Below are positions 3,226 through 35,549 of a stretch of 64,000 nt of DNA, one piece after another. The notes below the pieces were generated by a model. It was not told where the DNA came from and ran no database searches. It saw nothing but the letters and a program-made list of their open reading frames with translations. Where the stretch lies: the IMG/VR virus record IMGVR_UViG_3300038679_000051, positions 224,001 through 288,000 of that record; one strand, written 5' to 3'. This stretch comes from a virus. Its lineage: Duplodnaviria > Caudoviricetes. The translations under genes were made by a program, and so were the position numbers. How positions within the stretch are numbered: position 1 is the stretch's first letter; each line of letters starts with the position of its first letter.

Positions 3226-3358
3226 GCCGATAAAAAGAGAACCGATTAAGAAAATCCCCGCCGTCGTTAAGAAAAAAGGGGTCAATTCTATGATGCCAGG
3301 GAAAAATCATGGATATGGGAGAAGCACTCTAAAAGTAATTAAAGGTTAAAAATAAGGT

Positions 3359-12640: not shown

Positions 12641-13123
12641 ATGCCACATCCTAGTTATGCACCGGTTGCACCATATTGGACTATGGTGCAGTTCAAAGTC
12701 TTTGCCAATCTAGTCCCATTAGAGGGCAAACGATGGGAGACTATTCGCGACATGGAACGTGTCGCGAATGAGGTAGAAGCAGCGATAATTGCTGGACTAC
12801 CGACGATTAACATTGCGACGCCGATTGCTTTTACGCCGCAATTTGGAAGTAAAACAGCCAGGATCACCATCGTGGGCACGGTACGTGAAGATGATCCATT
12901 GCGTGCAGATAGAACGAATGCCACGTTTGATCATGATAATGCGATCATGTCTGGTCAGATTGGTGGTCCAAACATGGCACGAACGGATCCTCTTGTAGAT
13001 GCTGCCGTCAAAAGGTTGAAATCATTATTGGAAGGTTCATCGTCTCATTTATTGAATCACATTTATCGCATCGAATATGCCGGTTGCGTTTATGGAGAAG
13101 GTGGACGCCATTTCCCACTGTAA
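12641..13123 (+). CDS. hypothetical, possible virion protein
   Basis: AGGAGG RBS, CAAACATA motif upstream. Confidence 0.65.
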   Translation: MPHPSYAPVAPYWTMVQFKVFANLVPLEGKRWETIRDMERVANEVEAAIIAGLPTINIATPIAFTPQFGSKTARITIVGTVREDDPLRADRTNATFDHDNAIMSGQIGGPNMARTDPLVDAAVKRLKSLLEGSSSHLLNHIYRIEYAGCVYGEGGRHFPL

Positions 13124-13925
13124 TGGAGAACTAACATCGTTCCGGCACCATTGAAGTCTAAAGCAAAATGCTTTTGACTAGAAAGCAAGGGCAAAATGGA
13201 AGGCGTAGACGACGTCAAAAAGAGAATAACTGATATGTTTGCGGGTTTGGCGGGAGGGGCCAAAGAAGCCGGTCTTAATAAGGCCATGGAATACGCCAAG
13301 AGAATAATGAGTGGCGAACCAAAGGAAAAAGTTCTTGAAGGTATCGGTCCGGTGTTTCGTAAGAGCGTCGACCAGGCCATCAATCAATTAACTGCTGCTC
13401 AAAAATCACAACCGCAGGCTAAAGCGCAACCACAAAAATTAACTTCTCAACAAATTTTTGATTGGGCAAAAGGGGGCGATAAACGGTTGCAGATTGCCGT
13501 CGCTAGGATTGTTTCCGGTGATGATCGGAATCAGATCAAGACGTTACATAATGCGATCGCTGGCGATGAACAGTCGAGAAAATGGTTGACTGATTATGTA
13601 AGTGCGATGGGTGAAAGTCCTCAAAAATCAGCCATACCAATTCGTAAGGAAGGTTTGACATTCGCTGAACGAATTAGACTGGTGCTCGAAGAATTAGAAT
13701 AAAATTGCATCAAAATCTGATCGTAAACATAATGAAATTATCATTGCTTTTCGAAACCCCGGATGTTGAACCATTTGGGTCGTTCACATGTCTTGACAAC
13801 GAATATCCATATTGGGGTAATCCACGCGGTAGAGATAACAATGGAATATGACAAGGGTAAATTTAATCGATATGCCAAATTGGGAATGCATGCGACGGAT
13901 CCTCTTGTGGATGCTGCCGTCAAAA
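12983..13925 (+). repeat. 31-bp direct repeat pair (12983-13013 and 13895-13925)
   Basis: ACGGATCCTCTTGT(A/G)GATGCTGCCGTCAAAA, 30/31 identical, both reading [10 protein letters not shown]. Confidence 0.85.
13196..13702 (+). CDS. hypothetical helical protein
   Basis: 168-aa Ala/Lys/Gln-rich ORF. Confidence 0.6.
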   Translation: MEGVDDVKKRITDMFAGLAGGAKEAGLNKAMEYAKRIMSGEPKEKVLEGIGPVFRKSVDQAINQLTAAQKSQPQAKAQPQKLTSQQIFDWAKGGDKRLQIAVARIVSGDDRNQIKTLHNAIAGDEQSRKWLTDYVSAMGESPQKSAIPIRKEGLTFAERIRLVLEELE

Positions 13926-13939
13926 AGATAAATAGAATT

Positions 13940-14962
13940 ATGAACCTCACAAAAACGGCTTTCCTCACTGGTATTACTGGTCAAGATGGCGCATATTTAG
14001 CAGAATTTCTATTAGCGAAGGGATATTGTGTCCATGGTCTGATCCGACGTACCAGTAGTTTCTCTACGGGACGTATTGACCATCTTTATCATGATCCACG
14101 ATTGAAATTACATCATGGTGATTTATCTGATGGCAATAGTTTGGCGAGTTTATTGCATGAAATTCGACCACAGGAAATTTATAATTTAGGTGCACAGTCA
14201 CATGTAGCTGTTTCTTTTCAAAATCCAGTTTATTCGGCCGATGTGGACGGGTTGGGCGTTTTGCGTCTGCTGGAGGCGATTCGTGCACTGAATTTTCCTG
14301 TCCGTTTTTATCAAGCTTCATCTAGTGAAATGTTTGGTTCTACGCCACCTCCACAGAATGAAAATACGCCGTTTCATCCGCGCAGCCCATATGCCTGTGC
14401 TAAAGTGTACGGTTATTGGCAGACCATCAATTATCGGGAGGCATATTCTCTATTTGCTTGTAACGGAATTTTGTTTAATCATGAGTCGCCGCGTCGCGGT
14501 GAAACGTTCGTCACGCGCAAAATCACTCGTGCAGCTTCTCGCATTAAATTAGGATTACAAGAGAAATTGTTTTTGGGTAATTTGGATGCTAGGCGTGATT
14601 GGGGCTTTGCTGGAGATTATGTTGAGGCAATGTGGTTGATGTTACAGCAAGATAAACCCGACGACTATGTCGTTGCTACGGGCGAAACATATTCGGTTCG
14701 GGAATTTCTTGATGAGGTCTTCGGGCAATTGCAATTGGATTGGCGTCGTTTCGTTGAACAAGATGCCCGATATATGCGTCCTAGCGAAGTAGACAATTTA
14801 TGTGGTGATGCGACCAAAGCACGCACGCAGTTGGAGTGGACGCCAAAAATAACTTTTAAAGCTTTAGCAAAAATGATGTTGGATGCTGACATGCAGTTGG
14901 CACAGAAAGAAAAAATCATAAGTTTGAGTGGAGAAACAAATGAAGTTAAATATGTTACATAG
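13940..14962 (+). CDS. gmd: GDP-mannose 4,6-dehydratase
   Basis: [17 protein letters not shown]-type Rossmann start, [47 protein letters not shown]; start may lie upstream (13886). Confidence 0.97.
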
Positions 14963-15644
14963 AAAACCAAAAATGTTACGCCTATTTCATGGTGTGTCAG
15001 GAGACAGTCAAGAAGATGTTGTGGGAAGGACTAAATATCTTGCTTTCAATGGATTTGATGAAAGGGGCGCATATTTTACGCAGAGCATTGGAATAGCTTT
15101 GTCATATAATCGTATGAAGGATTTCTCAAATTTAAAAATGCTTAATGGTGTAATTGAAACAATAATTAATGATTTACAACAGTGCTCAATTGATGGGGAC
15201 GCAATTTCTACGCATCTTGCGTATACACCAAACCATAAGGACGTTACATGGAGAGAATATTTTGATGAACATTGGCCCAACACAAATGATGAATTGAGAA
15301 TGAAGTTTGCTTTGCTTTCTTTCTTGCATACACAATGGGCGGAAAATGATGAAGATCCTATGGGCGATGAGAAATATATTGAGATTTTTGGTGACATCAA
15401 CCCATATGATGCTGCTCAAAAAGTTGCTGATGAATTGACGAAATATAGTGGATGCATCATTGGTGATCAAGATACGTCAAGAGGCAACGTTAAAATAAAT
15501 AGACGAATCCATCCGAATGAAATAATTGGCGCATATTTGTTTGACTGTGATGATAATTGGATGTGTGTTTGCGTTAAAGTTATAAAGGGCCATAACATCA
15601 AAGTTGGTGATAAATTTAAGATGGTGGGTAGGACGGTCTCGTAA
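14940..15644 (+). CDS. putative ADP-ribosyltransferase-fold protein
   Basis: LFHGVS...[14 protein letters not shown] and late [12 protein letters not shown] resemble H-Y type ART strands; no catalytic Glu identified with certainty. Confidence 0.4.
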
Positions 15645-15675
15645 TTGGACGTCACTTTCCGCCGCGTCATTGCGA

Positions 15676-17010
15676 TCAATATTTATAAATAAATCGCAAT
15701 TTTTCTTTTCCCATAACTTTCTCATATTTTATTGAATTTGCGTATTCTTGTTCTTTCATGCCCATTTTAACAGCATGGTCCCACAATGTCTTCTTATGTA
15801 TTACATACCCATCTTTACCGACATACCAATAATCGGGTTTGACAGTTCCGTCTAATTGCCAATTTGAAGCTTTATAAATCGTTCCTGTATGATTGTGTGA
15901 TGTATCTGCGAATGTGATTAAATATTTTAAAGCTGGAAGTTCTGCTTCTATCATTTTCATGCATCTTGATATGAACCATGTAGCAAAATTCTTTTTTTGA
16001 TAGGCTGGATGAATGCAGAATCTTGATAATTCGCGTATTTCTGCCGTTTTTATACCAAGTTTATCAGCGGATTCTTTTCTAGTGATTGTAGAAAAAGCGC
16101 ATACGGCAATTAGATCATTACCTAATTTAACTCCATATCTAATGGAATTCTTACCAATCCTACCAAAGTAGTGATATTTTGCGACAAATTTCCTAGCTTC
16201 ATCATCAGTAATGTGAATGATTTCGACGTCGTCAAATGAGAAATCAATTGGGTTCCAGCCTGATCCAGTCCAATATTTAATCAAATCGACGATCCTGTCC
16301 TTGCAATGAAATTCATGCTCCCAAATGTGTTTTAATTTTAGATGTGGGAAATAACGTTCAAGATATGTGGCTTTTGCTTGATCATTTATCTTCGCCTTAT
16401 CCTTTTTGTGCCAATACTCGCCTTGGCATTCTATGATGAGGTTGTGATCTGGTAAGATGCAATCATAAGTCCAGAACCCAATGATTTTTTCAATTTCATA
16501 TTTAATCTTCAAATCATCTAAAATTGAATATAAAATCAATTGTATTGATGATGGCTTTCCTAATTGGTCATTTGCTAAATATGCCATCTTTTCTTTTACA
16601 GTATCATATTTCCCGATCATCTTTTTCACATATGATTGATCTTGCCATAGTTCTTTCATTCGTCGTTGTATTTTGTTCGATCTCAATAATGATGCTTCTC
16701 TAAAAGATCTCCCTTTAATGTTATATTGTTTAAAAGACTTGTTAATCGTTGCGATGGATACTCCGGCTTTTTTGGCTAATTCAGGTTTTGACATCCTTTT
16801 GTCATAATAATTAATTTTAAACCATTCTTCGGTTAAGAAATCAGGTAATCTTGGTTTGATTGGAATGCCAAATTTTTTTAATCTTCTATAAAGAAATTGA
16901 TCGTTGACGTTAAACTTTTTGACTATTTCTGAATATGGTGTCGTAGCATATAACTTTTCAAGACCTTCTTTCGTGTCAAATTCTGGTCCCATTATTTTGA
17001 AAAATTTCAT
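15676..17010 (-). CDS. HTH repeats + Vsr/DUF559-like endonuclease + Mom-like GNAT DNA-modification domain fusion
   Basis: TYDCILPDHNLIIECQGEYWH...DQAK nuclease motif; KYHY...ELSRFCIHP...WFISR...LITFAD..H.GTIYKASNW Mom-family motifs. Confidence 0.8.
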   Translation of the reverse strand: MKFFKIMGPEFDTKEGLEKLYATTPYSEIVKKFNVNDQFLYRRLKKFGIPIKPRLPDFLTEEWFKINYYDKRMSKPELAKKAGVSIATINKSFKQYNIKGRSFREASLLRSNKIQRRMKELWQDQSYVKKMIGKYDTVKEKMAYLANDQLGKPSSIQLILYSILDDLKIKYEIEKIIGFWTYDCILPDHNLIIECQGEYWHKKDKAKINDQAKATYLERYFPHLKLKHIWEHEFHCKDRIVDLIKYWTGSGWNPIDFSFDDVEIIHITDDEARKFVAKYHYFGRIGKNSIRYGVKLGNDLIAVCAFSTITRKESADKLGIKTAEIRELSRFCIHPAYQKKNFATWFISRCMKMIEAELPALKYLITFADTSHNHTGTIYKASNWQLDGTVKPDYWYVGKDGYVIHKKTLWDHAVKMGMKEQEYANSIKYEKVMGKEKLRFIYKY

Positions 17011-18344: not shown

Positions 18345-18908
18345 ATGAGAATAAATTCGATGGTTGGTCGATTTGCTGGCACAATTACGTTCACTGATGG
18401 GACCATTGAAGTCTTTCACACACAAGGTGAATGGGACGTCAACGGCATAAGTCGGGCCTGGAGTATTGATGAAAACGAATCTAAAGAAGCATTGAAACAA
18501 GTAAATTGGCATTTAAATCCGAATTATCCACCAGATGGACCACAATATCCATATAAAACTGGGGTTGATTTATTTAACATTATGAATGGTTTGTTTCCAT
18601 TTGCTGGATGTGTTTGGGCCAATACACATCCAGCTGCGCAAAAAATTATTTCTGACATGACTTCTCGTTTGGATTTGACATTGGCGCGTGACGACAATAA
18701 AACTTATCAAGTTGCTGCCGTCATATATAAATTTCCGAACGTCATTTTGGAAGGGTTGCCTTTTGCGACGCATCCACCACAATCATTGGTGTCGGTGTCA
18801 TCGGTTGCTGATAGAAGTTCCATGACGGATGCCACCAATCTTGCTGCTGTTAAAGTATTGATTCGTACTGCTTTTAACGTCATCATGGAGACCGTTACGG
18901 TTTCATAA
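18345..18908 (+). CDS. hypothetical, possible virion protein
   Basis: AAGGAG RBS, TAAATATA upstream. Confidence 0.6.
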   Translation: MRINSMVGRFAGTITFTDGTIEVFHTQGEWDVNGISRAWSIDENESKEALKQVNWHLNPNYPPDGPQYPYKTGVDLFNIMNGLFPFAGCVWANTHPAAQKIISDMTSRLDLTLARDDNKTYQVAAVIYKFPNVILEGLPFATHPPQSLVSVSSVADRSSMTDATNLAAVKVLIRTAFNVIMETVTVS

Positions 18909-20462
18909 TTTTGCTAAATATCCTTCTGGGTGACCAGACAAATCTTTGATTCCACCATTTTCAACGATTGATTTGAATTGTTCACGGAACACGAAGTATA
19001 GACGAATGACGCCGGATGGTTGTTCTTTCCAATCTTCAATTTTTAACACATCATCTGCTAATTCCTGTGTGATTTTCGCGCCAGCACCAACCGATACTGT
19101 TTGCATCACTGAGACGTCGTTGCCGACTGCCTCGCCGTCATATGACATCGTATATACATCACAGACACTGATGTTGCGAGCACCAATAGGCCCTGTGCAT
19201 CCTGTCGTATATACATCACAGACACTGATGTTGCGAGCACCAATAGGCCCTGTGCATCCTGTTGGACCCGATGGACCCGATGGACCAAAAAACGAACGTT
19301 CGATGTTGTTCTGTCTACGTGTCTTTGGTTCGAAGAAAGCAAAACCAAATGCTGGAACAGTGTTGTGTTTACTAATGATGAGAGAGGCTATGTCCTTCTG
19401 TTCGTCTTTAGTGAAGAAGAATTGTCGCACCACACCGTTTGGCAATCTAAAACCATCAAGCCATAAATTGTCTGGATGAGCAACATATGATTTTGATGGC
19501 CATTTGTGACCACATTCCTCACACAATCTACCCTCTTTGAATTTCGTCTTATGGACTGGACATTCATTTTTATATTGTTCCAATTCTAGTTTTTCAAATT
19601 TTTGGCCGGTAATTGGATTCATGCCCTTGATACTGGGGAGAACGGCGACGTTTAGGGCATCATTCTCAGTCCAATCAAACCATAAACCAAAATCAGGATC
19701 GACTGGACAGACATAACAACCTTCACCGCGCATCCATTCTTGTGGACAACCTGGCAGAGCGTCAACTGGAAACACTGGGACTGGTGCTCCTGGTGGTAAA
19801 GCATTGCTTTCATTGTCGGTCAACAATGGTGCTCGCATCAACCTAGCCGTGAAATTGCCGACTTTCATCTTTCTGACATAACCGGATTTGGCTATAGGAA
19901 CGGCGTAATTAATGCCGTTTCTTTCACGAATGCGCGTGATCTGGTCGTTGATCATTTGTACGCTGTTGGCATAATTGTTGGTATCCACGCCGTAGATCAT
20001 ACCAAACCCCAATTTAGAGGCCATTTGCATTGCTCGTTGTCTAGTCGTAGTATTTGCAGCAATCATATATAGAAATTCCCAACCGATGACTTCCTTCTCC
20101 CCCATCAATTTTGCCAATTCATCGGACGTGATTTTGCTCTCGTTTTCCTCACCGTCAGTGAATGCGGCAATAATTATGTGGTCGGCTTTGCTCTTCTCAA
20201 CATGTCTAACGGCGTACGCTACGGCATCCAGCAACGCCGTGCCGCCGTTAGCTTGAAACGTTTGTAAACGTTCCATTTTCGACAAATTCACCCCATCAAT
20301 GACGATTTCTGATTTGTTGCTAAACGTTATGACGTTTACGGTGCAGTCATCGTTGATCTTACGTTGTTCTTCAATCAATTTGTTGATCGAAGCGATTGCC
20401 GTTTCCATTAGACATTGCATCGATCCACTACGATCAATTATCAACGTTAATTCTGTGGACAT
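18903..20462 (-). CDS. vWA domain protein fused to an uncharacterised C-terminal domain
   Basis: MIDAS motif IIDRSGSM, GGTALLDA, FTDGEEN; C-terminal LPPG..P.FP...LW.D...WLDG...VRQF domain. Confidence 0.8.
   Translation of the reverse strand: MSTELTLIIDRSGSMQCLMETAIASINKLIEEQRKINDDCTVNVITFSNKSEIVIDGVNLSKMERLQTFQANGGTALLDAVAYAVRHVEKSKADHIIIAAFTDGEENESKITSDELAKLMGEKEVIGWEFLYMIAANTTTRQRAMQMASKLGFGMIYGVDTNNYANSVQMINDQITRIRERNGINYAVPIAKSGYVRKMKVGNFTARLMRAPLLTDNESNALPPGAPVPVFPVDALPGCPQEWMRGEGCYVCPVDPDFGLWFDWTENDALNVAVLPSIKGMNPITGQKFEKLELEQYKNECPVHKTKFKEGRLCEECGHKWPSKSYVAHPDNLWLDGFRLPNGVVRQFFFTKDEQKDIASLIISKHNTVPAFGFAFFEPKTRRQNNIERSFFGPSGPSGPTGCTGPIGARNISVCDVYTTGCTGPIGARNISVCDVYTMSYDGEAVGNDVSVMQTVSVGAGAKITQELADDVLKIEDWKEQPSGVIRLYFVFREQFKSIVENGGIKDLSGHPEGYLAKL
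19148..19261. repeat. perfect 57-bp tandem duplication (19 codons)
   Basis: TCGTATATACATCACAGACACTGATGTTGCGAGCACCAATAGGCCCTGTGCATCCTG x2, in frame in the vWA gene. Confidence 0.95.
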
Positions 20463-20471
20463 GTCGTTTCT

Positions 20472-20539
20472 CCTTTATCCTTTATCCCTTTGTCCTTTAT
20501 CCCTTTGTCCCTTTGTCCCTTTGTCCTTCCTCCCTTTAT
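20472..20539 (-). repeat. array of about nine 7-8 bp Shine-Dalgarno-like units
   Basis: minus strand A(C/T)AAAGG(G) units fill the whole intergenic gap upstream of the vWA gene. Confidence 0.85.
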
Positions 20540-20988
20540 AACAAATCCTCACCCTCACCGTCTGAACCAATCGAGCCGCAAGAACCGGTCGCCCCCGTCG
20601 GGCCGGTTGGACCTTGTGCGCCAGTATAACACATTGTATTGGTTTGGAAGTTGCTGCGCCAATGCCATTCATCGAAGAAAATCTTCCTAGAATCATCATA
20701 GGAAAGTTCGACTGTGGTATCGGTAGTGAGAATGAATAAATCTATAAGTTTATGATATTCACCAACATACAAAATTGGGACAGGAAGATTAATGTTGTGC
20801 GAAACCTTCTTGAACTTCTTTGCCAACGTTAATTTTCGTTTCAATACTTCGACCAACAGTTTGTTGTATTTCTTCAACGCTATCTTATAATTCTTGATGT
20901 GGGCTTCCCTGTGTTTCTTCAACGCCTTAAGAATTGCTTGTGTTTCGAACTTTAGATTCATTTCCATGTGGTTTCTCCTTTTTATCAT
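20536..20988 (-). CDS. hypothetical protein with short Gly-X-Y C-terminal tail
   Basis: likely start 20967 (AGGAG RBS); ends YTGAQGPTGPTGATGSCGSIGSDGEG. Confidence 0.65.
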   Translation of the reverse strand: MIKRRNHMEMNLKFETQAILKALKKHREAHIKNYKIALKKYNKLLVEVLKRKLTLAKKFKKVSHNINLPVPILYVGEYHKLIDLFILTTDTTVELSYDDSRKIFFDEWHWRSNFQTNTMCYTGAQGPTGPTGATGSCGSIGSDGEGEDLL

Positions 20989-21151
20989 TGTATCTAACTG
21001 CGTAACCGGCCTCGCCTTCTATGCGATGCCCGGTTCTTGCCGCATGTCGAGATGCGTTTCTCGGTCCATGTTCATGATCTTGGGTACTCCACTTGCAGTC
21101 CTGGCATTCTGCAAGGAAGCGTACCAGAAATTGTCTATGTCTGCGTTTCAT
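20927..21151 (-). CDS. small Cys/His-containing hypothetical protein
   Basis: ATGA overlap with upstream gene; CxxC plus HAARTGH. Confidence 0.5.
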   Translation of the reverse strand: MKRRHRQFLVRFLAECQDCKWSTQDHEHGPRNASRHAARTGHRIEGEAGYAVRYNDKKEKPHGNESKVRNTSNS

Positions 21152-22002
21152 GCGTTCCAATCACGATGCTGGAAGAATGGATCAGCTTTACTGTTCGGCG
21201 TAGAAGATAATTTCCGACGCAATTTCGGTAATCTATCATCTTCTTTAAGCGTTTTAAAGGCTAGATCATTCGATGGTATTCTGATTCGTTCAATACCTTT
21301 CTTGATTAGATCATGAATCCCGACTGCATCTAATTTTGTACCGTTGTTGATGGCTACTCGGACGTAGATGCGATCTTCTTCCGGAAGAATGCTCCAGTCG
21401 TTTAAACACTTTTCACACCAACCATTGACTAAGGCGATGTCTGAATGGATTGGGCATTCTTCAATCCAAATCATTGGGAATTCACCGACGCGACACAATC
21501 GATAGACATGACCTTCGACGTTCATAATGCTTGGTGTGTTACGACGTCGTGCGACGTGCAACATTCTTATGCTGGCATTTACGTTTACCATATCGCCATC
21601 AAATGCAATGAATGGTCTGTCGTTTGATCGTCGTCGTAATTCTGATGCAATTTCCGACGAACAATCAGGGCCATATGCCTCAATTAATTCGTTGTCCTTC
21701 CATTGTGAGACCGGGCGCAGAGTAGACATCACATCGATGATTAGGTTTGATTCTTCTGATTTCTCCACGCCTTTCAGAATTGCCCATCCAGCACAAAATC
21801 TGGCAATTTTTACACCGTGTTTATCGACAAAGATCGCTCTGGCATCACCCTCTTTGGTGGTTCCTGCTTTGAGCATCCGATCATCATCAATGCCGAGTTC
21901 ATTAAGATATGACAAAACATCGGAAACCGACAGTTTCATTGTGTCGGCTGCTTTTGTGATCTCTTGTTCTTTGAAGGGGGTAGACGGGACATGATTACTC
22001 AT
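21148..22002 (-). CDS. hypothetical protein with possible Zn ribbon
   Basis: AGGAG-like RBS; CPIH...WCEKC. Confidence 0.7.
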   Translation of the reverse strand: MSNHVPSTPFKEQEITKAADTMKLSVSDVLSYLNELGIDDDRMLKAGTTKEGDARAIFVDKHGVKIARFCAGWAILKGVEKSEESNLIIDVMSTLRPVSQWKDNELIEAYGPDCSSEIASELRRRSNDRPFIAFDGDMVNVNASIRMLHVARRRNTPSIMNVEGHVYRLCRVGEFPMIWIEECPIHSDIALVNGWCEKCLNDWSILPEEDRIYVRVAINNGTKLDAVGIHDLIKKGIERIRIPSNDLAFKTLKEDDRLPKLRRKLSSTPNSKADPFFQHRDWNA

Positions 22003-22073
22003 CTTATTTCTCCTCTCGCTCGCAAACGCCTCATGACTCTGGACTAATCAGCACATCGCCTTTCGTCCGCTCC

Positions 22074-22081
22074 TATAAATA
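22074..22081 (+). promoter_or_regulatory. T4-type late promoter TATAAATA
   Basis: exact TATAAATA in the intergenic gap upstream of the operon leading to the gp15-like gene. Confidence 0.45.
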
Positions 22082-22137
22082 CATACGCATGTCAGGATTA
22101 ATGAAAATTCTGTTGAAAAATAAATTAGGGAGGACAT

Positions 22138-22479
22138 ATGTTTACGCTTAAATTTAATGTCTTAAACATGAAAGAGGTACAACAAAAGATGTTGAAAGCC
22201 GTTGAAGGACACATCTCGAACATGTCACCAATAATTGCGCAAATGGCGCGAGAAGAGATGGAGAAATTATCGAAATTTCCAATGTCAGTGAAGATGAATG
22301 GGAATGCAGCACAAATAAGTCCGATTACCAAGAATGAAAAGGAGTCGGAGGAAGCTGTCGATGAGGCTACCAAGGGGGCCAGTCCGCAATTTATGACGCA
22401 ATTTAAATTTAAAAATAAATCCTGGGTGACGCGAAGTCTCAAGATGAAAATGAAGGATGTCAAACATGGGAATTTATAA
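22138..22479 (+). CDS. hypothetical protein
   Basis: GGAGG RBS; 113 aa. Confidence 0.6.
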   Translation: MFTLKFNVLNMKEVQQKMLKAVEGHISNMSPIIAQMAREEMEKLSKFPMSVKMNGNAAQISPITKNEKESEEAVDEATKGASPQFMTQFKFKNKSWVTRSLKMKMKDVKHGNL

Positions 22480-24277: not shown

Positions 24278-24308
24278 ATCCACAGGTGGATTGAACCACC
24301 AGGTGGTT
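24278..24308. repeat. tandem short palindromes ATCCAC-ag-GTGGAT and AACCACC-a-GGTGGTT
   Basis: read directly; sit at the 5' breakpoint of the truncated Mom-like gene. Confidence 0.6.
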
Positions 24309-24639
24309 TCAAAGGAAATGTCAACTTTCCTCATGGTTTCTATCACGTGTGACTAAAATGTTATGGAATGATAAACCATTAATCAAGAAAATCATTACGT
24401 TTGCTGATACGACATATGGTCATGAAGGCACAATTTATAAGGCAGCAAATTGGACGTTGATCGGACAAGTGAAGCCCGATTATTGGTATGTTGATGAACA
24501 TGGTAATCGATTCCACAAGAAAACAATATGGGATCATGCCTCAAAAATGAGTCAAAACGAAGAAGAATATGCCAATTTATATGGATTAAATAAAATTGTT
24601 GGTGGTATGAAACATAGATATGTTATTGATCGACCGTAG
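24307..24639 (+). pseudogene. 5'-truncated Mom-like GNAT fragment
   Basis: FQRKCQLSSWFLSR...IITFADTTYGHEGTIYKAANW...VKPDYWYV...HKKTIW homologous to C-termini of 15676 and 31648; frame closed by TGA at 24292-24294. Confidence 0.75.
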
Positions 24640-27700: not shown

Positions 27701-28141
27701 ATGAAATTGAAGATGCTTTACGAAAATCTAAAGAAAGAGTATGATAAAGATAAACACGAAAATTTAGAGGCCATTGCAGAAATAGCAGGTGCATATATCA
27801 TTAAAAAAGACCGAGACGAATTTTATTCAAATAATCCGAGAGCATGGATGACTGATGATCCAAATTTAAAAGACGAGCGTGGTAATATCATAGCAAAATG
27901 GTATTTGGTGGATTTGGGTGAATCTGGTCCAAGACCAGAACCAGAGGCATGGTGGGCACACGAGAAATATCGATTGGGCGATCCACACAGGAAAAATGAC
28001 TTCTACATCAAATCATTGCAAGTTAATCCCCCTGATCCAATATATGACCGGGGACTTGGCGGATTTCAATTTTATCCTAAAGATTTCTGGAAACAAGAAG
28101 GAATAAAATTTGGATTTGGGAACGATACAATCAGTTTCTAA
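27701..28141 (+). CDS. hypothetical protein
   Basis: AGGAG RBS; begins MKLKMLYE. Confidence 0.65.
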   Translation: MKLKMLYENLKKEYDKDKHENLEAIAEIAGAYIIKKDRDEFYSNNPRAWMTDDPNLKDERGNIIAKWYLVDLGESGPRPEPEAWWAHEKYRLGDPHRKNDFYIKSLQVNPPDPIYDRGLGGFQFYPKDFWKQEGIKFGFGNDTISF

Positions 28142-28215
28142 GAGACGGCACATCCAACCACACAACCACATAAACAACAAAACATTTACGAGCTTGTGTG
28201 AGGTATTTAAATGAT

Positions 28216-28291
28216 GCGTGTGAAGCATAGTGATCGATGCGCCTGACTACCAGTTGGGAGAGGGGAGTGTAATTCTCGCCCACACGCTCCA
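28216..28291 (+). tRNA. atypical tRNA-Gly (anticodon ACC)
   Basis: acceptor GCGTGTG/CACACGC, U73, encoded CCA, D-stem GCAT/ATGC, anticodon arm CCTGA-CTACCAG-TTGGG; T-loop TGTAATT, bulged T-stem, A8 and no D-loop GG are non-canonical. Confidence 0.75.
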
Positions 28292-28299
28292 AAACGTCA

Positions 28300-28485
28300 T
28301 TTTGTGCAGCCTACTTGGTACGGAAGACCAAGTAAAAGCGCGGATAACAATTCCTAAGGGCGAAACAGTGAACAGTGCAGGCCCGCGACGAAGGAAAGTC
28401 GGCAACTAAACCCCTTCACCCGGTGGGCAGGAACATTTACCGTAAGTCAAACCATTGCGGACTTGTTGAAACCGGGTAAATTTTT
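28300..28485 (+). ncRNA. candidate structured RNA / leader of unknown class
   Basis: hairpins TACTTGGT/ACCAAGTA, GGGC/GCCC, CGAC/GTCG, AAGTC/GACTT and alternative pairings of 28471-28481. Confidence 0.3.
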
Positions 28486-28500
28486 AAATAGGGGTGCAAA

Positions 28501-28776
28501 ATGCCATTATTTGTCGATTTAGAAGGTGTGATGGGCGGAGAATTAGAGGGACCGCTTGTGGGCACAGTCCAACAGGCAATGACGTCTTTAAAGACATCTC
28601 GGATTGTCAGTGGGGCTGGCGATAATGGGGCATGGCACGTTTATGTTCGAGACGATGACAAGTATGTTTGTTGTTTTTATCGTCACTTTACAAAAATAAA
28701 CGAAATGACTTTTACATCAAAAACTCAAGTGAGAATGTGGTTGCGGGAATGGTTGCCGAGAATACAGCACCAATAA
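28501..28776 (+). CDS. hypothetical protein
   Basis: 91-aa ORF with AGGGG RBS. Confidence 0.55.
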   Translation: MPLFVDLEGVMGGELEGPLVGTVQQAMTSLKTSRIVSGAGDNGAWHVYVRDDDKYVCCFYRHFTKINEMTFTSKTQVRMWLREWLPRIQHQ

Positions 28777-28795
28777 CTTGGTGGGGAGGGCACAA

Positions 28796-29014
28796 ATGTT
28801 CAGCATAAGAGAGAAGAGAGAAATTTCGGATGCCGTGCAAAAGATTCTGCGAGCAACAAATCATCCGGAATTGCCATCGGGTGAGATTCAGTTTCATTTA
28901 CATGTAGTTGGTGCAGAATCATGGTCATGGGCGGACATTCTCAATAATGGGGCGGTGGTAACGCCTGGACGCAATCCATGGAATGAATCGCAAGATAAGG
29001 AAGCAGTGATATGA
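28796..29014 (+). CDS. small hypothetical phage protein
   Basis: MFSIREKREISDAVQKILRATNHPELP...AESWSWADI; GGAGG RBS. Confidence 0.65.
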   Translation: MFSIREKREISDAVQKILRATNHPELPSGEIQFHLHVVGAESWSWADILNNGAVVTPGRNPWNESQDKEAVI

Positions 29015-29472
29015 TATCAGTTTCTATTAAGAACATGCTGGATACCAAAAATGTCACAAATCTTGTTGGGAACATTATAAAAAATACGATATTTAGCATG
29101 GGCGTTGATACGAACAGCAGTCCTATATCCGGTCAATTCAAAGACGTGCAGAGAAATTTATTGGTGGACATTGATAAGGATGATCTTGACAATTTAATGT
29201 CATTAGCCGTCAGACAATATAGCGAGACTGAAGGTGAGATTATGGAAAAATTCCTGCGATTCGACCGAAACGTTGCTGCTGTAAAAGGATATATACCAAG
29301 ACAAAAAGTCATTGAATCTTTTTGTGTATTGCTGATATATAATCGCATCAGAGAAGAAATCTGCTCGGCGGTAATGTCGAATACGATCCATGATGTGCAT
29401 GTTCCAATTGAATTACCAAGATCAGCAGAATGTGTACAATTCAATCTTGTGCTAGCTGAAACAGGCAATTGA
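29011..29472 (+). CDS. hypothetical protein
   Basis: ATGA overlap; 153 aa. Confidence 0.55.
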   Translation: MISVSIKNMLDTKNVTNLVGNIIKNTIFSMGVDTNSSPISGQFKDVQRNLLVDIDKDDLDNLMSLAVRQYSETEGEIMEKFLRFDRNVAAVKGYIPRQKVIESFCVLLIYNRIREEICSAVMSNTIHDVHVPIELPRSAECVQFNLVLAETGN

Positions 29473-29502
29473 CTAGAAATGATGTGATGATAAAAAAGAG
29501 AC

Positions 29503-29757
29503 ATGAGATACCGCGTCGATTTCAGCAGATTGGCTAGGACGGAAGATGAAGTCATGAAACATAAATTAGTCAGGGAATTCGTAGATGCATTATTCCAAAC
29601 GTATAATCTGAATCGTAAGGAACATCTTCCAGATGGACATATATTGGATGAAATATTCATCGAAGAGGATCGTGATCTATCGGGGATGGACATAATGAAC
29701 GAGCATGTGATTCCGGCATATCCTGAGGCGAAATTGCAATCATGGGATAAATGGTAA
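29503..29757 (+). CDS. hypothetical protein
   Basis: 84-aa ORF in operon. Confidence 0.55.
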   Translation: MRYRVDFSRLARTEDEVMKHKLVREFVDALFQTYNLNRKEHLPDGHILDEIFIEEDRDLSGMDIMNEHVIPAYPEAKLQSWDKW

Positions 29758-30116
29758 TGATCAAGATGATAGTTGCTGGCAGCAGGGCGTTCGTTGATTA
29801 TGGATTTCTTAAAAAACAATTAGATGAATTCCTTTCATGTTTGTCAGATTCAGACGTTACAATAATATCTGGAATGGCTAAGGGTGCGGACATACTTGCT
29901 GTTAGATATGCCGAGGAACATCATTTACCAATCATCAAAATGCCCGCTGATTGGATTAAACATGGCAGAAGTGCAGGATATAATAGAAATTTAGAAATGG
30001 CCAAAATTGCCACACATTTAGTGGCGTTTTGGAACGGCAAATCACGGGGCACGAAGCATATGATCGACATTGCCGTTTTAAAGGGGTTGACGACTAAAGT
30101 AATCATCGTACCCTGA
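29751..30116 (+). CDS. SLOG-superfamily protein (DUF2493/YspA-like)
   Basis: IVAGSR, IISGMAKGAD, PADW..HGRSAGYNRN, VAFWNGKSRGT..MI. Confidence 0.9.
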   Translation: MVMIKMIVAGSRAFVDYGFLKKQLDEFLSCLSDSDVTIISGMAKGADILAVRYAEEHHLPIIKMPADWIKHGRSAGYNRNLEMAKIATHLVAFWNGKSRGTKHMIDIAVLKGLTTKVIIVP

Positions 30117-30196
30117 TGTATGACGATGCGTGAAGCATAGGGATGTATTTAATGCTGGGGTGGGTATGCCTACGCTTCATTTGAAGAAAGGAGGAG

Positions 30197-30448
30197 ATGA
30201 TGAATGCTGTTGATGAAATACAGAAAAGAATAATTCTGACGAAAATTAGAAAGATGCTTGATGAAAAATTGAAGTTAGAAATAACTGAGATGACTGAGAC
30301 AAAGAAGATAGAACAGCAGATAAACCAAGCTGTAACGTTTTTTAGTGAGAAATATCCGCAAGTTGAATTTAAGGTTCAGACCGACACTGTCGATGGGAAA
30401 CTGCAATATACGATAGATATATGGTTAGAAACTGAGACGATCGATTAA
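30197..30448 (+). CDS. hypothetical protein
   Basis: GGAGGAG RBS; 83 aa. Confidence 0.6.
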   Translation: MMNAVDEIQKRIILTKIRKMLDEKLKLEITEMTETKKIEQQINQAVTFFSEKYPQVEFKVQTDTVDGKLQYTIDIWLETETID

Positions 30449-30990
30449 CGCACCCTGATGTGTTTTTTCAAACCTTCAGCAGTTGCGCCAGGCGTCAAGA
30501 CTAAGCTGATCGGCATCGTCCACCAATTTCCAACTTCTTCTACAGTGATGGTTTCGTCGGCCAATTCATCTTCATCGACGTCAGCTAATTCTTCATTTAA
30601 GAAATCAACAATGTTGCTCAATTCATTGTCGGTAAATTTCGTCATCTGAAAATTATGATCTTGCACTCGTATCCATCCCATATGATCCATCGCGTAATCA
30701 CGTGGGTCCGACCCGTCTTTCAACCATTCTATGGCTTCCTCATTTGCATCATTTTGACGCAACCATGCGATGGCCTCATCAGACAACGGTGTCATTATTT
30801 CCATTTGTGGTGCCGATGCATCCTCAAAAGCGCTGATACCTAAGGCCGCTTCAAATGCCGCCATAGCATGATTATAATCACCTATGTCGCCGTCGGCAAA
30901 CGTTGCCATGCCACTGTCGTCAATCCACCATTCGCCCCTCAACGACGATTCATTGAGAATGATTGGTTTGTATAATCTAGTGATCTTCAT
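30445..30990 (-). CDS. acidic hypothetical protein
   Basis: 181 aa; begins MKITRLYKPIILNES. Confidence 0.65.
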   Translation of the reverse strand: MKITRLYKPIILNESSLRGEWWIDDSGMATFADGDIGDYNHAMAAFEAALGISAFEDASAPQMEIMTPLSDEAIAWLRQNDANEEAIEWLKDGSDPRDYAMDHMGWIRVQDHNFQMTKFTDNELSNIVDFLNEELADVDEDELADETITVEEVGNWWTMPISLVLTPGATAEGLKKHIRVR

Positions 30991-31076
30991 ATGGTATTTT
31001 TTGTTCGTATTTTAATGATTTTTCGTCATTACAATTTCCGTCAAAGATATTACAGACCAGAATGGAGGATTTAAAC

Positions 31077-31601
31077 ATGCCAGGATTCACGATTCAGGGT
31101 GGTGAAAACGATGGTGGCCAAATAGTCAGCAATACGGTTGAAACCCGTAGAAATCACCGTTGGCGATGGACGTCAATGGGTAATGCCGTCCAGCCGGACG
31201 TTCTGATTTTGTTGCAGAAATGTCAGCGTCCGAAATTTACTAACGCTGAACCCGAATTGCATCACAATCAAGAAGTAGCCTATTTCATCGGCAAACAAAC
31301 ATGGGATCCGATTGAGATGGCATTCTACGATGCCGAACAACAACCAGATTGTTCAAGAGAAATCTGGAAATGGTTGAAGATTGGTAATTTACTCGATCAA
31401 GCAAACGTCAGCATACCGAAAACGTATAAGAAACGTGGACAGTTGGATATGGTGGATGGTAAAGGCAGCGAAACCGAAACGTGGTTCGTCCATGGTGCAT
31501 GGCCGAAAGAAGTCAGTTATTCTGAGAACGATTATACGAATACTGAAATTGCACTAATCACGGTAAGTCTGCGCTATGATCGTGCAGAAAAAACGAAATA
31601 A
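31077..31601 (+). CDS. tail tube protein, gp19-like
   Basis: RNHRWRW...CQRPK...VAYFIGKQTWDPIEMAFYD...WFVHGAWP...ITVSLRYD; GGAGG RBS. Confidence 0.9.
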   Translation: MPGFTIQGGENDGGQIVSNTVETRRNHRWRWTSMGNAVQPDVLILLQKCQRPKFTNAEPELHHNQEVAYFIGKQTWDPIEMAFYDAEQQPDCSREIWKWLKIGNLLDQANVSIPKTYKKRGQLDMVDGKGSETETWFVHGAWPKEVSYSENDYTNTEIALITVSLRYDRAEKTK

Positions 31602-31647
31602 TAATTCGTTTAATTAAATTCAGAAACATTCAACGTATTTTAATCAA

Positions 31648-33435
31648 ATGATCGATTGGAATAAAACTAAACAAAAATTTGGATTGACTGAATCTATCGT
31701 AACCAGTAAATCACTGGTCGTAGTAGTATGTGATGAATGTAAATCAGAACGAGTCATAAAATATGTTGGACATAAAACCATCATCAAAGCCCATGGTAAT
31801 TCATTGTGTTCGTCGTGTCGTAGTAAAAGCATAAGAGTGATTCACGCTGAGGCATTTACTAAATCAGATGTGAAACGAGCGGAGACGTTGTCTAGAACAT
31901 ATAAAAAGAAATGGCAGGATAAGAAATATAGGAAGACACAACATGAAATAAGGAATAATGATTATCGTTCTAAGATCAGTAATGCATCTAAACAATGTTG
32001 GCAAAATGATGATTATAGACATAAAGTTGTCCATGGAATTAATGAGAAATGGAATGATCAAGAATACCACCAAAAATTTATTGAAATAATGAACAGCGAT
32101 GAAGTAAAAAAGAAATTGATGGACAATTGGAAGAATCATAAATATCGTGATAAAGTTCTTGCTATATGGGATGATGAGGATGTTGTGAAAGAATTTGCAA
32201 AACGGATGAGTTTACATAGCAAACGAATGTGGTCCGATCCAGAATTGAGATCGAAGATGATTGCTTCACTGAAGAAGCGATGGGAGAGTCTAGAATTAAG
32301 AGAACATGCTTCAAACGTCAATAAAGAGATCTTTTCCACGCCAGAGATGAGAATAAAATTATCGAAGAATGCACAAGATAAGGCAGCTGATCCAGAATGG
32401 CATAAGAACGTATCGGATGGCGTGAAGAGAGCATTTGCCTCAGATCCAGATATGAAACAAAAAATGTCTAGTCGATCAAAGAAATTATGGCAGAATGAGG
32501 ATTATAGAGAGAAGATGGCTGTCGTACAAGCAAATCACCCAGTCATAAGTTCATTGGCACGTAAGTTTTATGCAATGTTGACGCAAATGAATATAAAATA
32601 TGTTGAGGAAGGTCCCGAAACAAAATTTGGTCCATGGACGTTTGATTGTCTAATACCGAAGCAAGGTAATATGCAAAAACATTTATTGGTTGAAGTTCAT
32701 GGTGAATATCCACATTCAAGAGAGGATACGAAAATAAGAGATGCAGCAAAGGCGACATATGCGAATAGATATTTGCTTGATTATGAATTAAAAGTCGTGT
32801 GGGAGCAATGGTTTCTATTTAGAAATAAAGTAGAGGATATGGTTAGAGAATGGATTGGGATTAAAGAGAATACGACGTTGGTTGATTTCTCACTGAATGA
32901 CGTTAAAACTATAGAATCATCTTACAAGGAATGTCTTGATTTTCTTTCTCGACATCATTATCTTTATACTTGTCCACGAGGATCAACATATTATAAGGCA
33001 GTCATTAACGATGAGATTGTGGCAGTTTGTTTATATAGTCCATTAATAAGACAAAACATTGGCATTAAAAATTGTCTTGAATTATCGCGTTTCTGCGTCC
33101 ATCCATCATACCAAAAGAAAAATTTTGCCTCTTGGTTAATTTCGAGGACTAATAGGTTATTGAAGATGGATAAACCGGAGACGGAAACAATAATAACATA
33201 TGCAGATTCTACAGTCGGTCACGTTGGTACGATTTATAAGGCGGCTAATTTTAAATTAGATCATATAGTTGAGCCTGATTATTGGTATGTTGATAAAGAC
33301 GGTTATGTCGTACATAAACGGACATTATATGCTCGTGCCTGTAAAATGAGTCAGAAGGAACGTGATTATGCAGAGAACCATGGTTATAAAAAAGTCTGGG
33401 GTGGTGAAAAACGACGTTATTCAATTAATTTGTGA
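31648..33435 (+). CDS. Zn finger + helical repeats + Vsr/DUF559-like endonuclease + Mom-like GNAT fusion
   Basis: CDEC..CSSC; repeated W.D..YR.K units; TFDCLIP...VEVHGEYPH...DAAK; RHHY...ELSRFCVHP...IITYAD..GHVGTIYKAANF. Confidence 0.8.
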   Translation: MIDWNKTKQKFGLTESIVTSKSLVVVVCDECKSERVIKYVGHKTIIKAHGNSLCSSCRSKSIRVIHAEAFTKSDVKRAETLSRTYKKKWQDKKYRKTQHEIRNNDYRSKISNASKQCWQNDDYRHKVVHGINEKWNDQEYHQKFIEIMNSDEVKKKLMDNWKNHKYRDKVLAIWDDEDVVKEFAKRMSLHSKRMWSDPELRSKMIASLKKRWESLELREHASNVNKEIFSTPEMRIKLSKNAQDKAADPEWHKNVSDGVKRAFASDPDMKQKMSSRSKKLWQNEDYREKMAVVQANHPVISSLARKFYAMLTQMNIKYVEEGPETKFGPWTFDCLIPKQGNMQKHLLVEVHGEYPHSREDTKIRDAAKATYANRYLLDYELKVVWEQWFLFRNKVEDMVREWIGIKENTTLVDFSLNDVKTIESSYKECLDFLSRHHYLYTCPRGSTYYKAVINDEIVAVCLYSPLIRQNIGIKNCLELSRFCVHPSYQKKNFASWLISRTNRLLKMDKPETETIITYADSTVGHVGTIYKAANFKLDHIVEPDYWYVDKDGYVVHKRTLYARACKMSQKERDYAENHGYKKVWGGEKRRYSINL

Positions 33436-33749
33436 ATGTATTGCTTATCTACCCGATTATAAAGCTTGAACCATCCAACAATAGAAGACATTTTCGCATC
33501 ATGCCCAAAAAGGAAACGCGTTATTTGATTCAATTCGCGTGCCACGAACCATTCCTGATCGAGTGGCCTTTTAATACTGGTTTTGGCATCCCATGGTATA
33601 TTTATTGTCACTTCCCATGACCAAGGTTTTCCTTCTGCGTCGTCTGATAATGCACGCAATCCTTCCGACCCTAGTGATCCTTCCGATCCTAGTGATCCAC
33701 GTGATCCGAATTGTTCTTGTTCATTCATTCCTTTGATTCTTTGATCCAT
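33417..33749 (-). CDS. hypothetical protein with GS(L/E/R) repeats
   Basis: GSRGSLGSEGSLGSEG from short DNA repeats at about 33661-33708. Confidence 0.5.
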   Translation of the reverse strand: MDQRIKGMNEQEQFGSRGSLGSEGSLGSEGLRALSDDAEGKPWSWEVTINIPWDAKTSIKRPLDQEWFVARELNQITRFLFGHDAKMSSIVGWFKLYNRVDKQYIHKLIE

Positions 33750-34429
33750 TTTTCTAATTCATTACACACCATGCTTACACCACCTGAACATTCGTGTACT
33801 TTGCTGTTACGGTTTTTGGCTATGTTTTTTATGGCATTATAAGTCGAATGATCAATGAAACTAGTGAGAATGAATATTTCGCCCCATGGAAACGGTGATG
33901 GTATGCCACTTTTATTACCTGAATCATAAAATTTCAGATCGATGTCTGGAAATCGTTGTTTGATTTCGTTTTCTTGATTGTTTTTGACGCCGAAGATGAT
34001 TGCTTTCAGCCTCTTCGTGGCGTATGCTTCTGGGATTTTTTCGCCTAATTTCCCTGCGGCATTAAACATCATTCTAGTGCAGGCTGTCATCATGTCGATG
34101 TTAGTCATTAAACGGCGGACGAATGCGACGGCCAGTTGTTCTATAGTCATTTCTGCTAATAAATCATCTGTGGTCTTTTGTGGCGGCAATTCTTGTTTTA
34201 TGACGCGGAAACCGTCTTCTAATTCTTTGACATGTTCCTGCCAGCGCTCGACCAACCAACCGATTTGCGAGACGGCAGTTACCTTGCGACGACGGTCTGC
34301 CGGTATTTGTTGTTGTGCGCGTTCGAGCTGTGAATTTAACGTTTCATGTGGATTCTTTTTGTGCATGTTAATGACGATAGATGCGAGTTTGTCTTTTTCT
34401 TCGTCTGACCAAAAGATGCGATCTTTCAT
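33725..34429 (-). CDS. hypothetical protein
   Basis: 234 aa; GAAGAGGG RBS-like upstream. Confidence 0.65.
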   Translation of the reverse strand: MKDRIFWSDEEKDKLASIVINMHKKNPHETLNSQLERAQQQIPADRRRKVTAVSQIGWLVERWQEHVKELEDGFRVIKQELPPQKTTDDLLAEMTIEQLAVAFVRRLMTNIDMMTACTRMMFNAAGKLGEKIPEAYATKRLKAIIFGVKNNQENEIKQRFPDIDLKFYDSGNKSGIPSPFPWGEIFILTSFIDHSTYNAIKNIAKNRNSKVHECSGGVSMVCNELEKWIKESKE

Positions 34430-34538
34430 TTTTCACCCCTCTTCTCACGGTTTCTGCTGCATTTTTATTGTGGTGGATTCTTTCGTAAATGATTTTGTGA
34501 TGACATTCTCTGTAAATATAATTTTGGAGAAAACAAAC

Positions 34539-35054
34539 ATGCCGGGTTTTATGATAGAAGGTAAAGGTCAAGGTCCATCAAATGAATTGGGTGGATCAGA
34601 CGTCCATCGCATCCATAGGTGGTCGTTCGAATGGACGGGTCTTGGTAAAGAGGTTCAGGATTATGCTCTAAATTGCACTAGGCCGACGTTAGATATAGAC
34701 ACAGTGACGATCCATCAACGACAAAATGAGGCATATTTGCCTGGTAAACATAGATGGGCACCAATTAGGTTGACGTTATATGTGATGCAGAAGGATACGC
34801 TACAGAAATTGAAGCAATTGCGTGACAAAACAGTTACTACAAATGAAGGAATGAATAATTATGCAATGGAGAGAAATTCCGTATCACAAATGACTTTGCA
34901 GGCATTAAATGGTGAAGGACAGGTTATATATAAATGGATACTCGAAGGATGTTGGATATCTAAAATTGAACATCCTACGTTTAATTATGATAACAGTGAT
35001 CTGGCGACCGTCGAAGTGATGGTGGCATATGATTACGCAAAGGAAGAAGAATAG
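34539..35054 (+). CDS. tail-tube-like protein (gp19/gp54-like paralog)
   Basis: MPGF start, RIHRWSF, CTRPTL, YLPGKHRWAPI, WILEGCW, VAYD. Confidence 0.85.
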   Translation: MPGFMIEGKGQGPSNELGGSDVHRIHRWSFEWTGLGKEVQDYALNCTRPTLDIDTVTIHQRQNEAYLPGKHRWAPIRLTLYVMQKDTLQKLKQLRDKTVTTNEGMNNYAMERNSVSQMTLQALNGEGQVIYKWILEGCWISKIEHPTFNYDNSDLATVEVMVAYDYAKEEE

Positions 35055-35066
35055 GGGGACTTAGGG

Positions 35067-35549
35067 ATGCCAGGATTTTATGTTGAAAAGGCGAGAAGTG
35101 ATGTAGAGAAAACGTTCCTGCAGCATTTCTGGTACGCGGAACAAATTGGTCCATTGAACGTCCAAGGATTGTTGCTACAAGATGTCGGTTTGCCCAACTT
35201 TGAAACTGCGCCACATGAACAGAATGGTGCATCATTAACGTATAAGTTCGCAAATTTCATTAAATATTCTGACGCTACCATTACGTTCTATGATACGTTG
35301 GGCTTGTTCAAAGATTTAGAAGAATGGCGGAAGAAAATATGGGAACCAAACACCGGATTGCAGCCAAAGAAATCTTATGCTAAGGATACCGTCATAGTGC
35401 AAACTGATGGGGCTGGCAACGAAAAACAGAAATACAAATTAGTCAATACATGGCCGTCTAAAATAGATTCTGGACAACTTACATACACCAAAAGTGAGGC
35501 AAAGGTAGTAACTCTCACTCTGGTGTGTGATTATATGACGGTCGAATGA
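35067..35549 (+). CDS. tail-tube-like protein (third paralog)
   Basis: MPGF start, VGLPNF, YKFA..IKYSDATITFYD, YKLVNTWP, LVCDY. Confidence 0.8.
   Translation: MPGFYVEKARSDVEKTFLQHFWYAEQIGPLNVQGLLLQDVGLPNFETAPHEQNGASLTYKFANFIKYSDATITFYDTLGLFKDLEEWRKKIWEPNTGLQPKKSYAKDTVIVQTDGAGNEKQKYKLVNTWPSKIDSGQLTYTKSEAKVVTLTLVCDYMTVE

Follow-up and report, generated by a model that had tools for sequence, protein, structure and literature searches.

Two nuclease-Mom fusion genes of an uncultured jumbo myovirus as candidate free-standing homing endonucleases

The present analysis concerns two genes, here called ORF A and ORF B (ORF, open reading frame), that lie between structural genes on a 64,000-nucleotide stretch of tailed phage DNA (Caudoviricetes; IMG/VR record IMGVR_UViG_3300038679_000051, positions 224,001 to 288,000), hereafter referred to as the window. 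The phage to which the window belongs is an uncultured jumbo myovirus with a 151-kb IMG/VR record, and the same protein occurs on one 320-kb contig. A DNA-level search with the 10 kb around ORF A gave no match to cultured phages; a close relative in culture does not exist for this phage. Both genes encode a DNA-binding head, a nuclease and a Mom domain of the GNAT fold, which are arranged as follows.

31648-33435, + strand: ORF A, 595 amino acids (aa); Zn ribbon, repeat array, EDxHD nuclease and Mom GNAT (ORF list, Pfam, PHROG)
31648-32526, + strand: N-terminal DNA-binding region of ORF A, residues 1-293, isoelectric point 9.7; CxxC...CxxC Zn ribbon, then W.D..YR.K repeats
32527-32883, + strand: EDxHD/Vsr-like nuclease of ORF A, residues 294-412, with D333, H351 (the 'x' position), H356, D365 and K368 (profile match to 3r3p)
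32884-33432, + strand: Mom domain of ORF A, residues 413-595, with H437, Y438, R481, S495, D520 and Y530, and T522 at the place of Mu R151
15676-17010, - strand: ORF B, 444 aa; helix-turn-helix (HTH) pair, EDxHD nuclease and Mom (Pfam, PHROG)
within 15676-17010, - strand: nuclease of ORF B, about residues 146-255, with D183, Q196 (the 'x' position), H201, D210 and K213
within 15676-17010, - strand: Mom domain of ORF B, residues 256-444, with H280, Y281, R330, T344, D369 and Y379

Both reading frames are intact. As the initial annotation had described, the two proteins have a C-terminal two-domain module in common, the nuclease followed by Mom, which in each case stands behind an unrelated N-terminal DNA-binding part. 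In ORF A, the cysteines of the Zn ribbon (C28-x2-C31 and C54-x2-C57) are followed by at least nine W.D..YR.K-type repeats in residues 89-293, and residues 192-298 match ORFs of T-even-type phages that are annotated as Seg-like or homing endonucleases (E 1e-8). ORF B shows two HTH matches instead (residues 23-47 and 70-94, both below the Pfam cut-offs) and a single W.D..Y repeat that adjoins the nuclease. No Pfam NUMOD model matched, and the Pfam scan gave no family of S-adenosylmethionine (SAM)-dependent methyltransferases in either ORF. In the PHROG collection, the Mom-like group 1384 matches both proteins, phrog_3339 ('homing endonuclease') spans positions 20-532 of 536 in ORF A, and phrog_559 matches ORF B with its positions 307-590 of 607 (E 2e-25) over nuclease and Mom. 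The labels of PHROG 3339 and 559 are homing or HNH endonucleases, and both ORFs match over the nuclease as well as the GNAT domain.

For the nuclease, a profile (A2) was built from the middle domain of 31 relatives. Its best match in the PDB is the catalytic domain of I-Bth0305I, the prototype EDxHD (Vsr-like) homing endonuclease (3r3p, E 1.5e-10), and it also matches 3hrl (E 0.0021); Pfam matches among the same 31 members were to MTES_1575 (27/31), DUF559 (5/31) and Vsr (4/31). The EDxHD motif of I-Bth0305I comprises E170, D196, N208, H213 and D222 (Taylor et al. 2011, PMC3239194), and the crystallised protein is a D196A/H213A mutant (PMC3239194). Both alanines of 3r3p align with an invariant D and an invariant H of the family, D222 aligns with an invariant D, and N208 with the position that the initial annotation had flagged. 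On the basis of the 3r3p match, we assign the nuclease to the EDxHD/Vsr-like homing endonuclease family; this is a more precise name than the earlier label 'Vsr/DUF559-like'.

Conservation was counted over 194 members of the nuclease-Mom family, in which the catalytic residues are kept almost without exception (D 194/194, H 191/194, D 193/194, K 193/194). The motifs E-V-H-G (residues 349-352 of ORF A) and E-C-Q-G (residues 194-197 of ORF B) had been read as deviations from a canonical motif, which was an over-reading: the residue in question occupies the naturally variable 'x' of EDxHD, which is Q in 137, N in 40 and H in 17 members, N in I-Bth0305I and H64 in Vsr. As a mark of a degenerate nuclease, E-x-H-G or E-x-Q-G is hence ruled out. 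At the equivalent of E170, 135 members have Q, 32 have E and 9 have A (A304 of ORF A included); given these Q and A, it is not a required acid in this family, and in I-Bth0305I itself the residue is weakly placed according to its own paper (PMC3239194). One could imagine that the nuclease is inactive and serves only to target the modifier to DNA, a second option of the initial annotation that could draw on A304 of ORF A in place of I-Bth0305I E170 and on E-Y-P-H in place of the D-Y-W-H of the family. From our point of view this is very improbable, as ORF A, ORF B and 191-194 of the 194 relatives all retain the catalytic D, H, D and K, and as the E170 position, with its Q and A, needs no acid in this family.

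The C-terminal GNAT domain is a true Mom by profile and by fold, as had been proposed at the outset. Pfam Mom (PF25680, cut-off 27.1 bits) matches ORF A with 67.9 bits (E 1.2e-18) and ORF B with 100.3 bits (E 1.5e-28), and a profile of the C-terminal domain matches Mu Mom (PDB 8bv8, E 6.5e-10). The same structure is the best PDB fold match (Foldseek, E 2.2e-10) of an AlphaFold2 (AF2) model of nuclease and GNAT of ORF A (predicted local distance difference test 92.6, predicted template modelling score 0.71), in which a pair of helices (270-279 and 284-290) separates the last strands, at the place of the HTH-like insertion of Mu Mom. In the Foldseek search with this two-domain model, GNAT structures dominate the list and there is no fold match for the nuclease half. 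A two-copy model of the nuclease-Mom module scored 0.01, which is uninformative either way on a homodimer.

According to a 2026 study, Mu Mom transfers glycine from charged Gly-tRNA to the N6 of adenine in DNA, its active site comprises H58, Y59, R111, S124, D149, R151 and Y159 with R151 being essential, the HTH-like insertion is likewise essential, and W48 is needed for dimerisation (PMC13219725). Like the domain in the window, Mu Mom has a GNAT fold with a late helix-pair insertion, and the equivalents of six of these residues are kept in the family: H58, Y59, R111 and Y159 in 193 members each, S124 as S or T in 193 (T in ORF B), and D149 in all 194. The two differ in that Mu Mom is a stand-alone dimer of 231 aa with R151 and W48, whereas the window domain is fused behind a nuclease, has T or S for R151 and lies in a family in which W48 is not conserved. 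The Mom part is also the best conserved part of the protein, with a mean column identity of 54% compared to 48% for the nuclease. R151 aside, both enzymes, the nuclease and Mom, look functional as far as their residues can tell.

It could be argued that the Mom-like domain is not a DNA modifier but a dimerisation or DNA-clamping part of the nuclease, or that it acylates some other substrate, a tRNA or a protein for example. The absence of R151 throughout the family and the lack of conservation of W48 would fit this, as would the N found in place of D149 in Hef proper (phage FL12) and in a Campylobacter phage Hef-like protein, which would mean that a non-catalytic role arose in related lineages. 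We nevertheless regard such a role as unlikely, since six of the seven active-site residues of Mu Mom are kept in at least 193 of the 194 members, and since a scaffolding role would hardly account for a column identity above that of the nuclease.

The surroundings of both genes were compared with 67 loci around tail sheath homologues, onto which the genes of the window were mapped. The backbone order is g12641, g17088, g17548, g22457, g23392, sheath, tube1, (tube2), tube3 and baseplate. The following features bear on the comparison, the last two of which lie outside the window.

31062-31601, + strand: tail tube paralogue 1 (tube1; T4 gp19 family), left flank of ORF A (Pfam PF06841)
33417-34429, - strand: convergent ORF pair without known family (110 and 234 aa), in the same insertion as ORF A
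34524-35549, + strand: tail tube paralogues 2 and 3 (tube2 and tube3), right flank of the insertion (Pfam PF06841, synteny)
24295-24639, + strand: truncated copy, last ~100 Mom positions only, directly upstream of the sheath gene (six-frame hmmsearch)
G000:C1 29680-33255 (L003, ORF 1519-2907), - strand: further full-length nuclease-Mom gene, 462 aa, Zn ribbon and a few repeats
G000:C1 26240-29779 (L004, ORF 1492-3132), - strand: further full-length nuclease-Mom gene, 546 aa, long HTH array, 'x' = N like I-Bth0305I

Between tube1 and tube2 of the window, the insertion consists of ORF A and the two convergent ORFs, for which no counterpart was found at the related loci and nothing useful came from Pfam and PHROG scans. 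In the relatives, the next tube gene directly follows tube1. The ORF A site is empty in about 25 related contigs, where the sheath, tube1, tube3 and baseplate genes directly adjoin one another, which bears out the proposal that the fusion genes occupy gaps in a row of conserved structural genes. Likewise, the site of ORF B, immediately upstream of g17088, holds no such gene in about 20 contigs, whose gap between g12641 and g17088 measures 0.8-1.3 kb; it is filled in L017, and L023 and L015 carry the fusion elsewhere between these two genes. A fusion gene stands right after the sheath gene in L015, L016, L017 and L035 and right before it in L016 and L044, the copy of L044 being nearly whole and that of L016 being cut by the end of the contig. 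The loci thus vary among relatives, and neither an unrelated GNAT domain nor invariant loci, the outcomes by which the initial annotation would have been refuted, were found.

The truncated copy corresponds to positions 425-524 of the hidden Markov model (HMM) and contains an ORF at 24349-24639; the six-frame hmmsearch of the window detected no nuclease piece with it, and it is most closely related to the copy that L044 carries before its sheath gene (60% identity). For ORF A, the nearest homologue (47% identity) comes from another phage, where it occupies the same tube1|tube3 junction; the tube gene of that phage is no closer to that of the window than the tube genes of phages that lack the insertion. 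In a tree of the nuclease-Mom module, copies from the same site form pairs (ORF A with L077, ORF B with L017, and L016 with L035; support 100/99), and the four copies in this genome do not group together. The 151-kb record contains five Mom matches over the Pfam cut-off, and its four full nuclease-Mom copies have different N-termini.

Free-standing homing endonuclease genes are expected to leave traces of this kind, namely patchy occupancy, lineages bound to one site and a decayed copy, and the evidence of profile, fold and synteny supports the domain calls of the initial annotation as well as the placement that it had likened to such genes. We therefore read ORF A and ORF B as free-standing, site-associated homing endonucleases of the Hef/EDxHD type with a working Mom domain, an interpretation from sequence to which we give somewhat better than even chances. 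The ground on which it stands is formed by the domain identities, the conservation of both active sites, the variable occupancy, the site-specific lineages and the decayed copy, from which we infer cleavage, homing, and the modification chemistry and its role.

Under this reading, the modular N-terminal array would guide the Vsr-like nuclease to a cognate site close to the insertion point of its own gene, a genome without the gene would be cut, and repair by recombination would copy the gene in. By analogy with Mu Mom, the GNAT domain would transfer glycine from Gly-tRNA to the N6 of adenine in double-stranded DNA, and its tether to the DNA-binding array that also guides the nuclease would direct this mark to adenines at and around the sites within reach of the nuclease. 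Such marks could render the resident genome immune to its own nuclease and possibly also to host restriction.

Several points weigh against this interpretation. Not one of the 194 members has R at the equivalent of R151, nearly all of them having T or S, and since R151 is essential in Mu Mom, chemistry or substrate could differ from those of Mu Mom. A nuclease and a modifier acting in the same cell would also modify the DNA of a co-infecting rival, and modification-based immunity would for this reason need a kinetic asymmetry. Furthermore, the Hef protein of phage U5 reportedly cuts the DNA of its own phage in vitro, which argues against immunity at the level of sequence and is silent on modification. 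Lastly, old vertical inheritance combined with repeated loss can also give rise to variable occupancy and to sister pairs from the same site.

Both domains have also been interpreted from a different angle. Restriction endonuclease (REase)-Mom fusions of jumbo phages have been read as restriction combined with self-protection (Iyer, Anantharaman, Krishnan, Burroughs, Aravind 2021, Viruses 13:63, PMC7824862), and the first option of the initial annotation, namely that the nuclease cuts unmodified rival DNA while the GNAT domain protects self, is accordingly a prediction already in print for these fusions (Iyer et al. 2021, PMC7824862). In a conflict system of this restriction-modification type, the Mom domains would momylate the phage genome broadly, the nucleases would degrade unmodified DNA of the host or of superinfecting phages, mobility would be incidental, and several copies with different DNA-binding heads would widen the range of sequence contexts covered. 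The published prediction itself, the five momylating enzymes of phage PA5oct that are described with it (PMC7824862), the four full copies with different N-termini in the 151-kb record and the conservation of both active sites speak in its favour, and a tRNA-Gly-like RNA at 28216-28291, unconfirmed as a tRNA, would fit a heavy use of the glycyl carrier. On the other hand, the nuclease belongs to the homing EDxHD lineage and carries long modular heads that read a site, every lineage is bound to a single insertion site, and patchy occupancy together with a decayed copy resembles the life cycle of a selfish gene and not that of a needed defence. We thus consider a conflict system with incidental mobility possible but not probable. 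It overlaps with the homing interpretation and does not exclude it, and the two may perhaps be the same thing seen from another side.

The homing interpretation can be compared with several known systems. I-Bth0305I resembles ORF A and ORF B in the order of its parts, with a Vsr-like nuclease behind an N-terminal DNA-binding region that in the two ORFs is probably modular as well; the equivalents of its D196, H213 and D222 are kept in the nuclease-Mom family, 40 members of which likewise have N at the 'x' position. It differs in being intron-encoded and in ending after the nuclease, whereas ORF A and ORF B are free-standing and continue into a Mom domain of about 190 residues, and its E170 stands against mostly Q in the family.

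Hef and Hef-like proteins (U5 hef; RaK2 hef; Hef60 of Campylobacter phage NCTC12673; PHROG 559 and 3339) show the same three-part build, in which a Vsr-like nuclease is preceded by a variable DNA-binding head and followed by a GNAT-like domain at the C-terminus, and their genes also often adjoin tail sheath, tail tube and other virion genes. When compared by hhalign, the C-terminal domains of RaK2 hef and Campylobacter Hef60 match the Mom profile of the window with a probability of 97%, and the nuclease-GNAT module of Hef60 occurs in 416 phage records, where it mostly bears the label of a Hef-like homing endonuclease. The Hef-like C-terminal domain has, however, diverged. RaK2 hef reaches 23.3 bits, below the Pfam Mom cut-off, Hef60 gives no match, a GGAS motif is seen, and D149 of Mom is N in the Hef-like proteins of FL12 and the Campylobacter phage, whereas the window family keeps the Mom signature (68-110 bits). 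In Tequatrovirus FL12, a Hef-type gene annotated only as hypothetical protein lies between nrdA and nrdB (L076 1727-3319), which is also the position of hef in phage U5, the product of which cuts nrdB (PMC2988022). As a separate observation, nrdB of FL12 is annotated as two coding sequence pieces (3319-3996 and 4608-5087 of L076) with small ORFs between them.

In single-chain restriction-modification enzymes of Type IIG/IIC, such as MmeI and BcgI, a nuclease and a DNA modifier share one recognition part within one polypeptide, the modifier being a SAM-dependent methyltransferase and the recognition site being short. ORF A and ORF B are without a methyltransferase, their modifier is a GNAT domain and their heads are long arrays, so that the likeness is one of working only and not of membership.

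The REase-Mom fusions of Iyer et al. (2021) have the same architecture and come from the same kind of phage as the window (PMC7824862). The architecture described here is consequently not new, as it was described by these authors and as the Hef-like module is present in the 416 phage records mentioned above. In its treatment of these fusions, the paper does not name the nuclease as EDxHD or Hef-type, does not discuss homing and contains no analysis of site occupancy or at residue level (PMC7824862). Our literature search found no paper that joins 'Hef/EDxHD' with 'Mom', and one homologous module is treated in two literatures, as Hef/EDxHD homing endonuclease in the one and as jumbo-phage REase-Mom fusion in the other. 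The family comprises 532 representatives at E <= 1e-30, the top 150 of which all cover both domains, with N-termini of 0 to ~1000 residues. For the window itself, the result is an annotation that adds two members to a family already hundreds strong.

By the usual account, homing endonucleases leave the genome of their carrier uncut because insertion or sequence drift destroys the target. If our interpretation is correct, a homing nuclease that brings its own DNA-modifying enzyme would have a second, epigenetic route to immunity, and selfish homing genes would be less sharply set apart from restriction-modification systems. Self-immunity and general anti-restriction are both candidate roles for the Mom domain in these homing endonucleases. 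One could speculate, as a doubtful extension, that Hef-type homing endonucleases are generally bifunctional, with the fused domain of the Mom family writing a tRNA-dependent adenine mark at the target sites of the nuclease, so that the carrier would be protected by modification and not by a change in sequence. Such a hybrid, which could be called 'homing restriction-modification', would be a selfish nuclease that also shields its phage from restriction and, by doing so, decays more slowly.

Several further observations concern the neighbourhood of these genes. Just before ORF A, an A/T-rich hairpin (AAACGAA ... TTCGTTT, 31587-31612) lies over the stop codons of tube1, and an obvious Shine-Dalgarno sequence was not found at the start of ORF A. 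Within L015, an open frame of 1310 residues (12826-16755, + strand) lies directly after the sheath gene and continues its frame; it encodes a very long W.D..YR.K-type repeat array followed by the same nuclease-Mom module.

Beside ORF B, a gene for GDP-mannose 4,6-dehydratase (13763-14962) and an uncharacterised ORF of 238 aa lie within 13196-15644, in the variable gap between g12641 and g17088 and may be accessory cargo beside a selfish gene. Another ~4 kb that the relatives lack (18345-22479) is situated between g17548 and g22457 and includes a von Willebrand factor A (vWA)-domain protein (18903-20462, - strand).

The interval from sheath to tube1 (27701-30990) extends over ~3.4 kb where relatives have almost nothing. 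It contains six small ORFs without known family, a gene of the YAcAr/SLOG family (29751-30116) and the tRNA-like RNA. ARAGORN reported no tRNA in the window and Rfam no tRNA match at 28216-28291 on the + strand, and the fit of this element with the Gly-tRNA chemistry of Mom is only suggestive. The element itself, 76 nt long and on the + strand, shows a cloverleaf fold with an ACC anticodon region of the Gly type and a CCA that is encoded at its 3' end.

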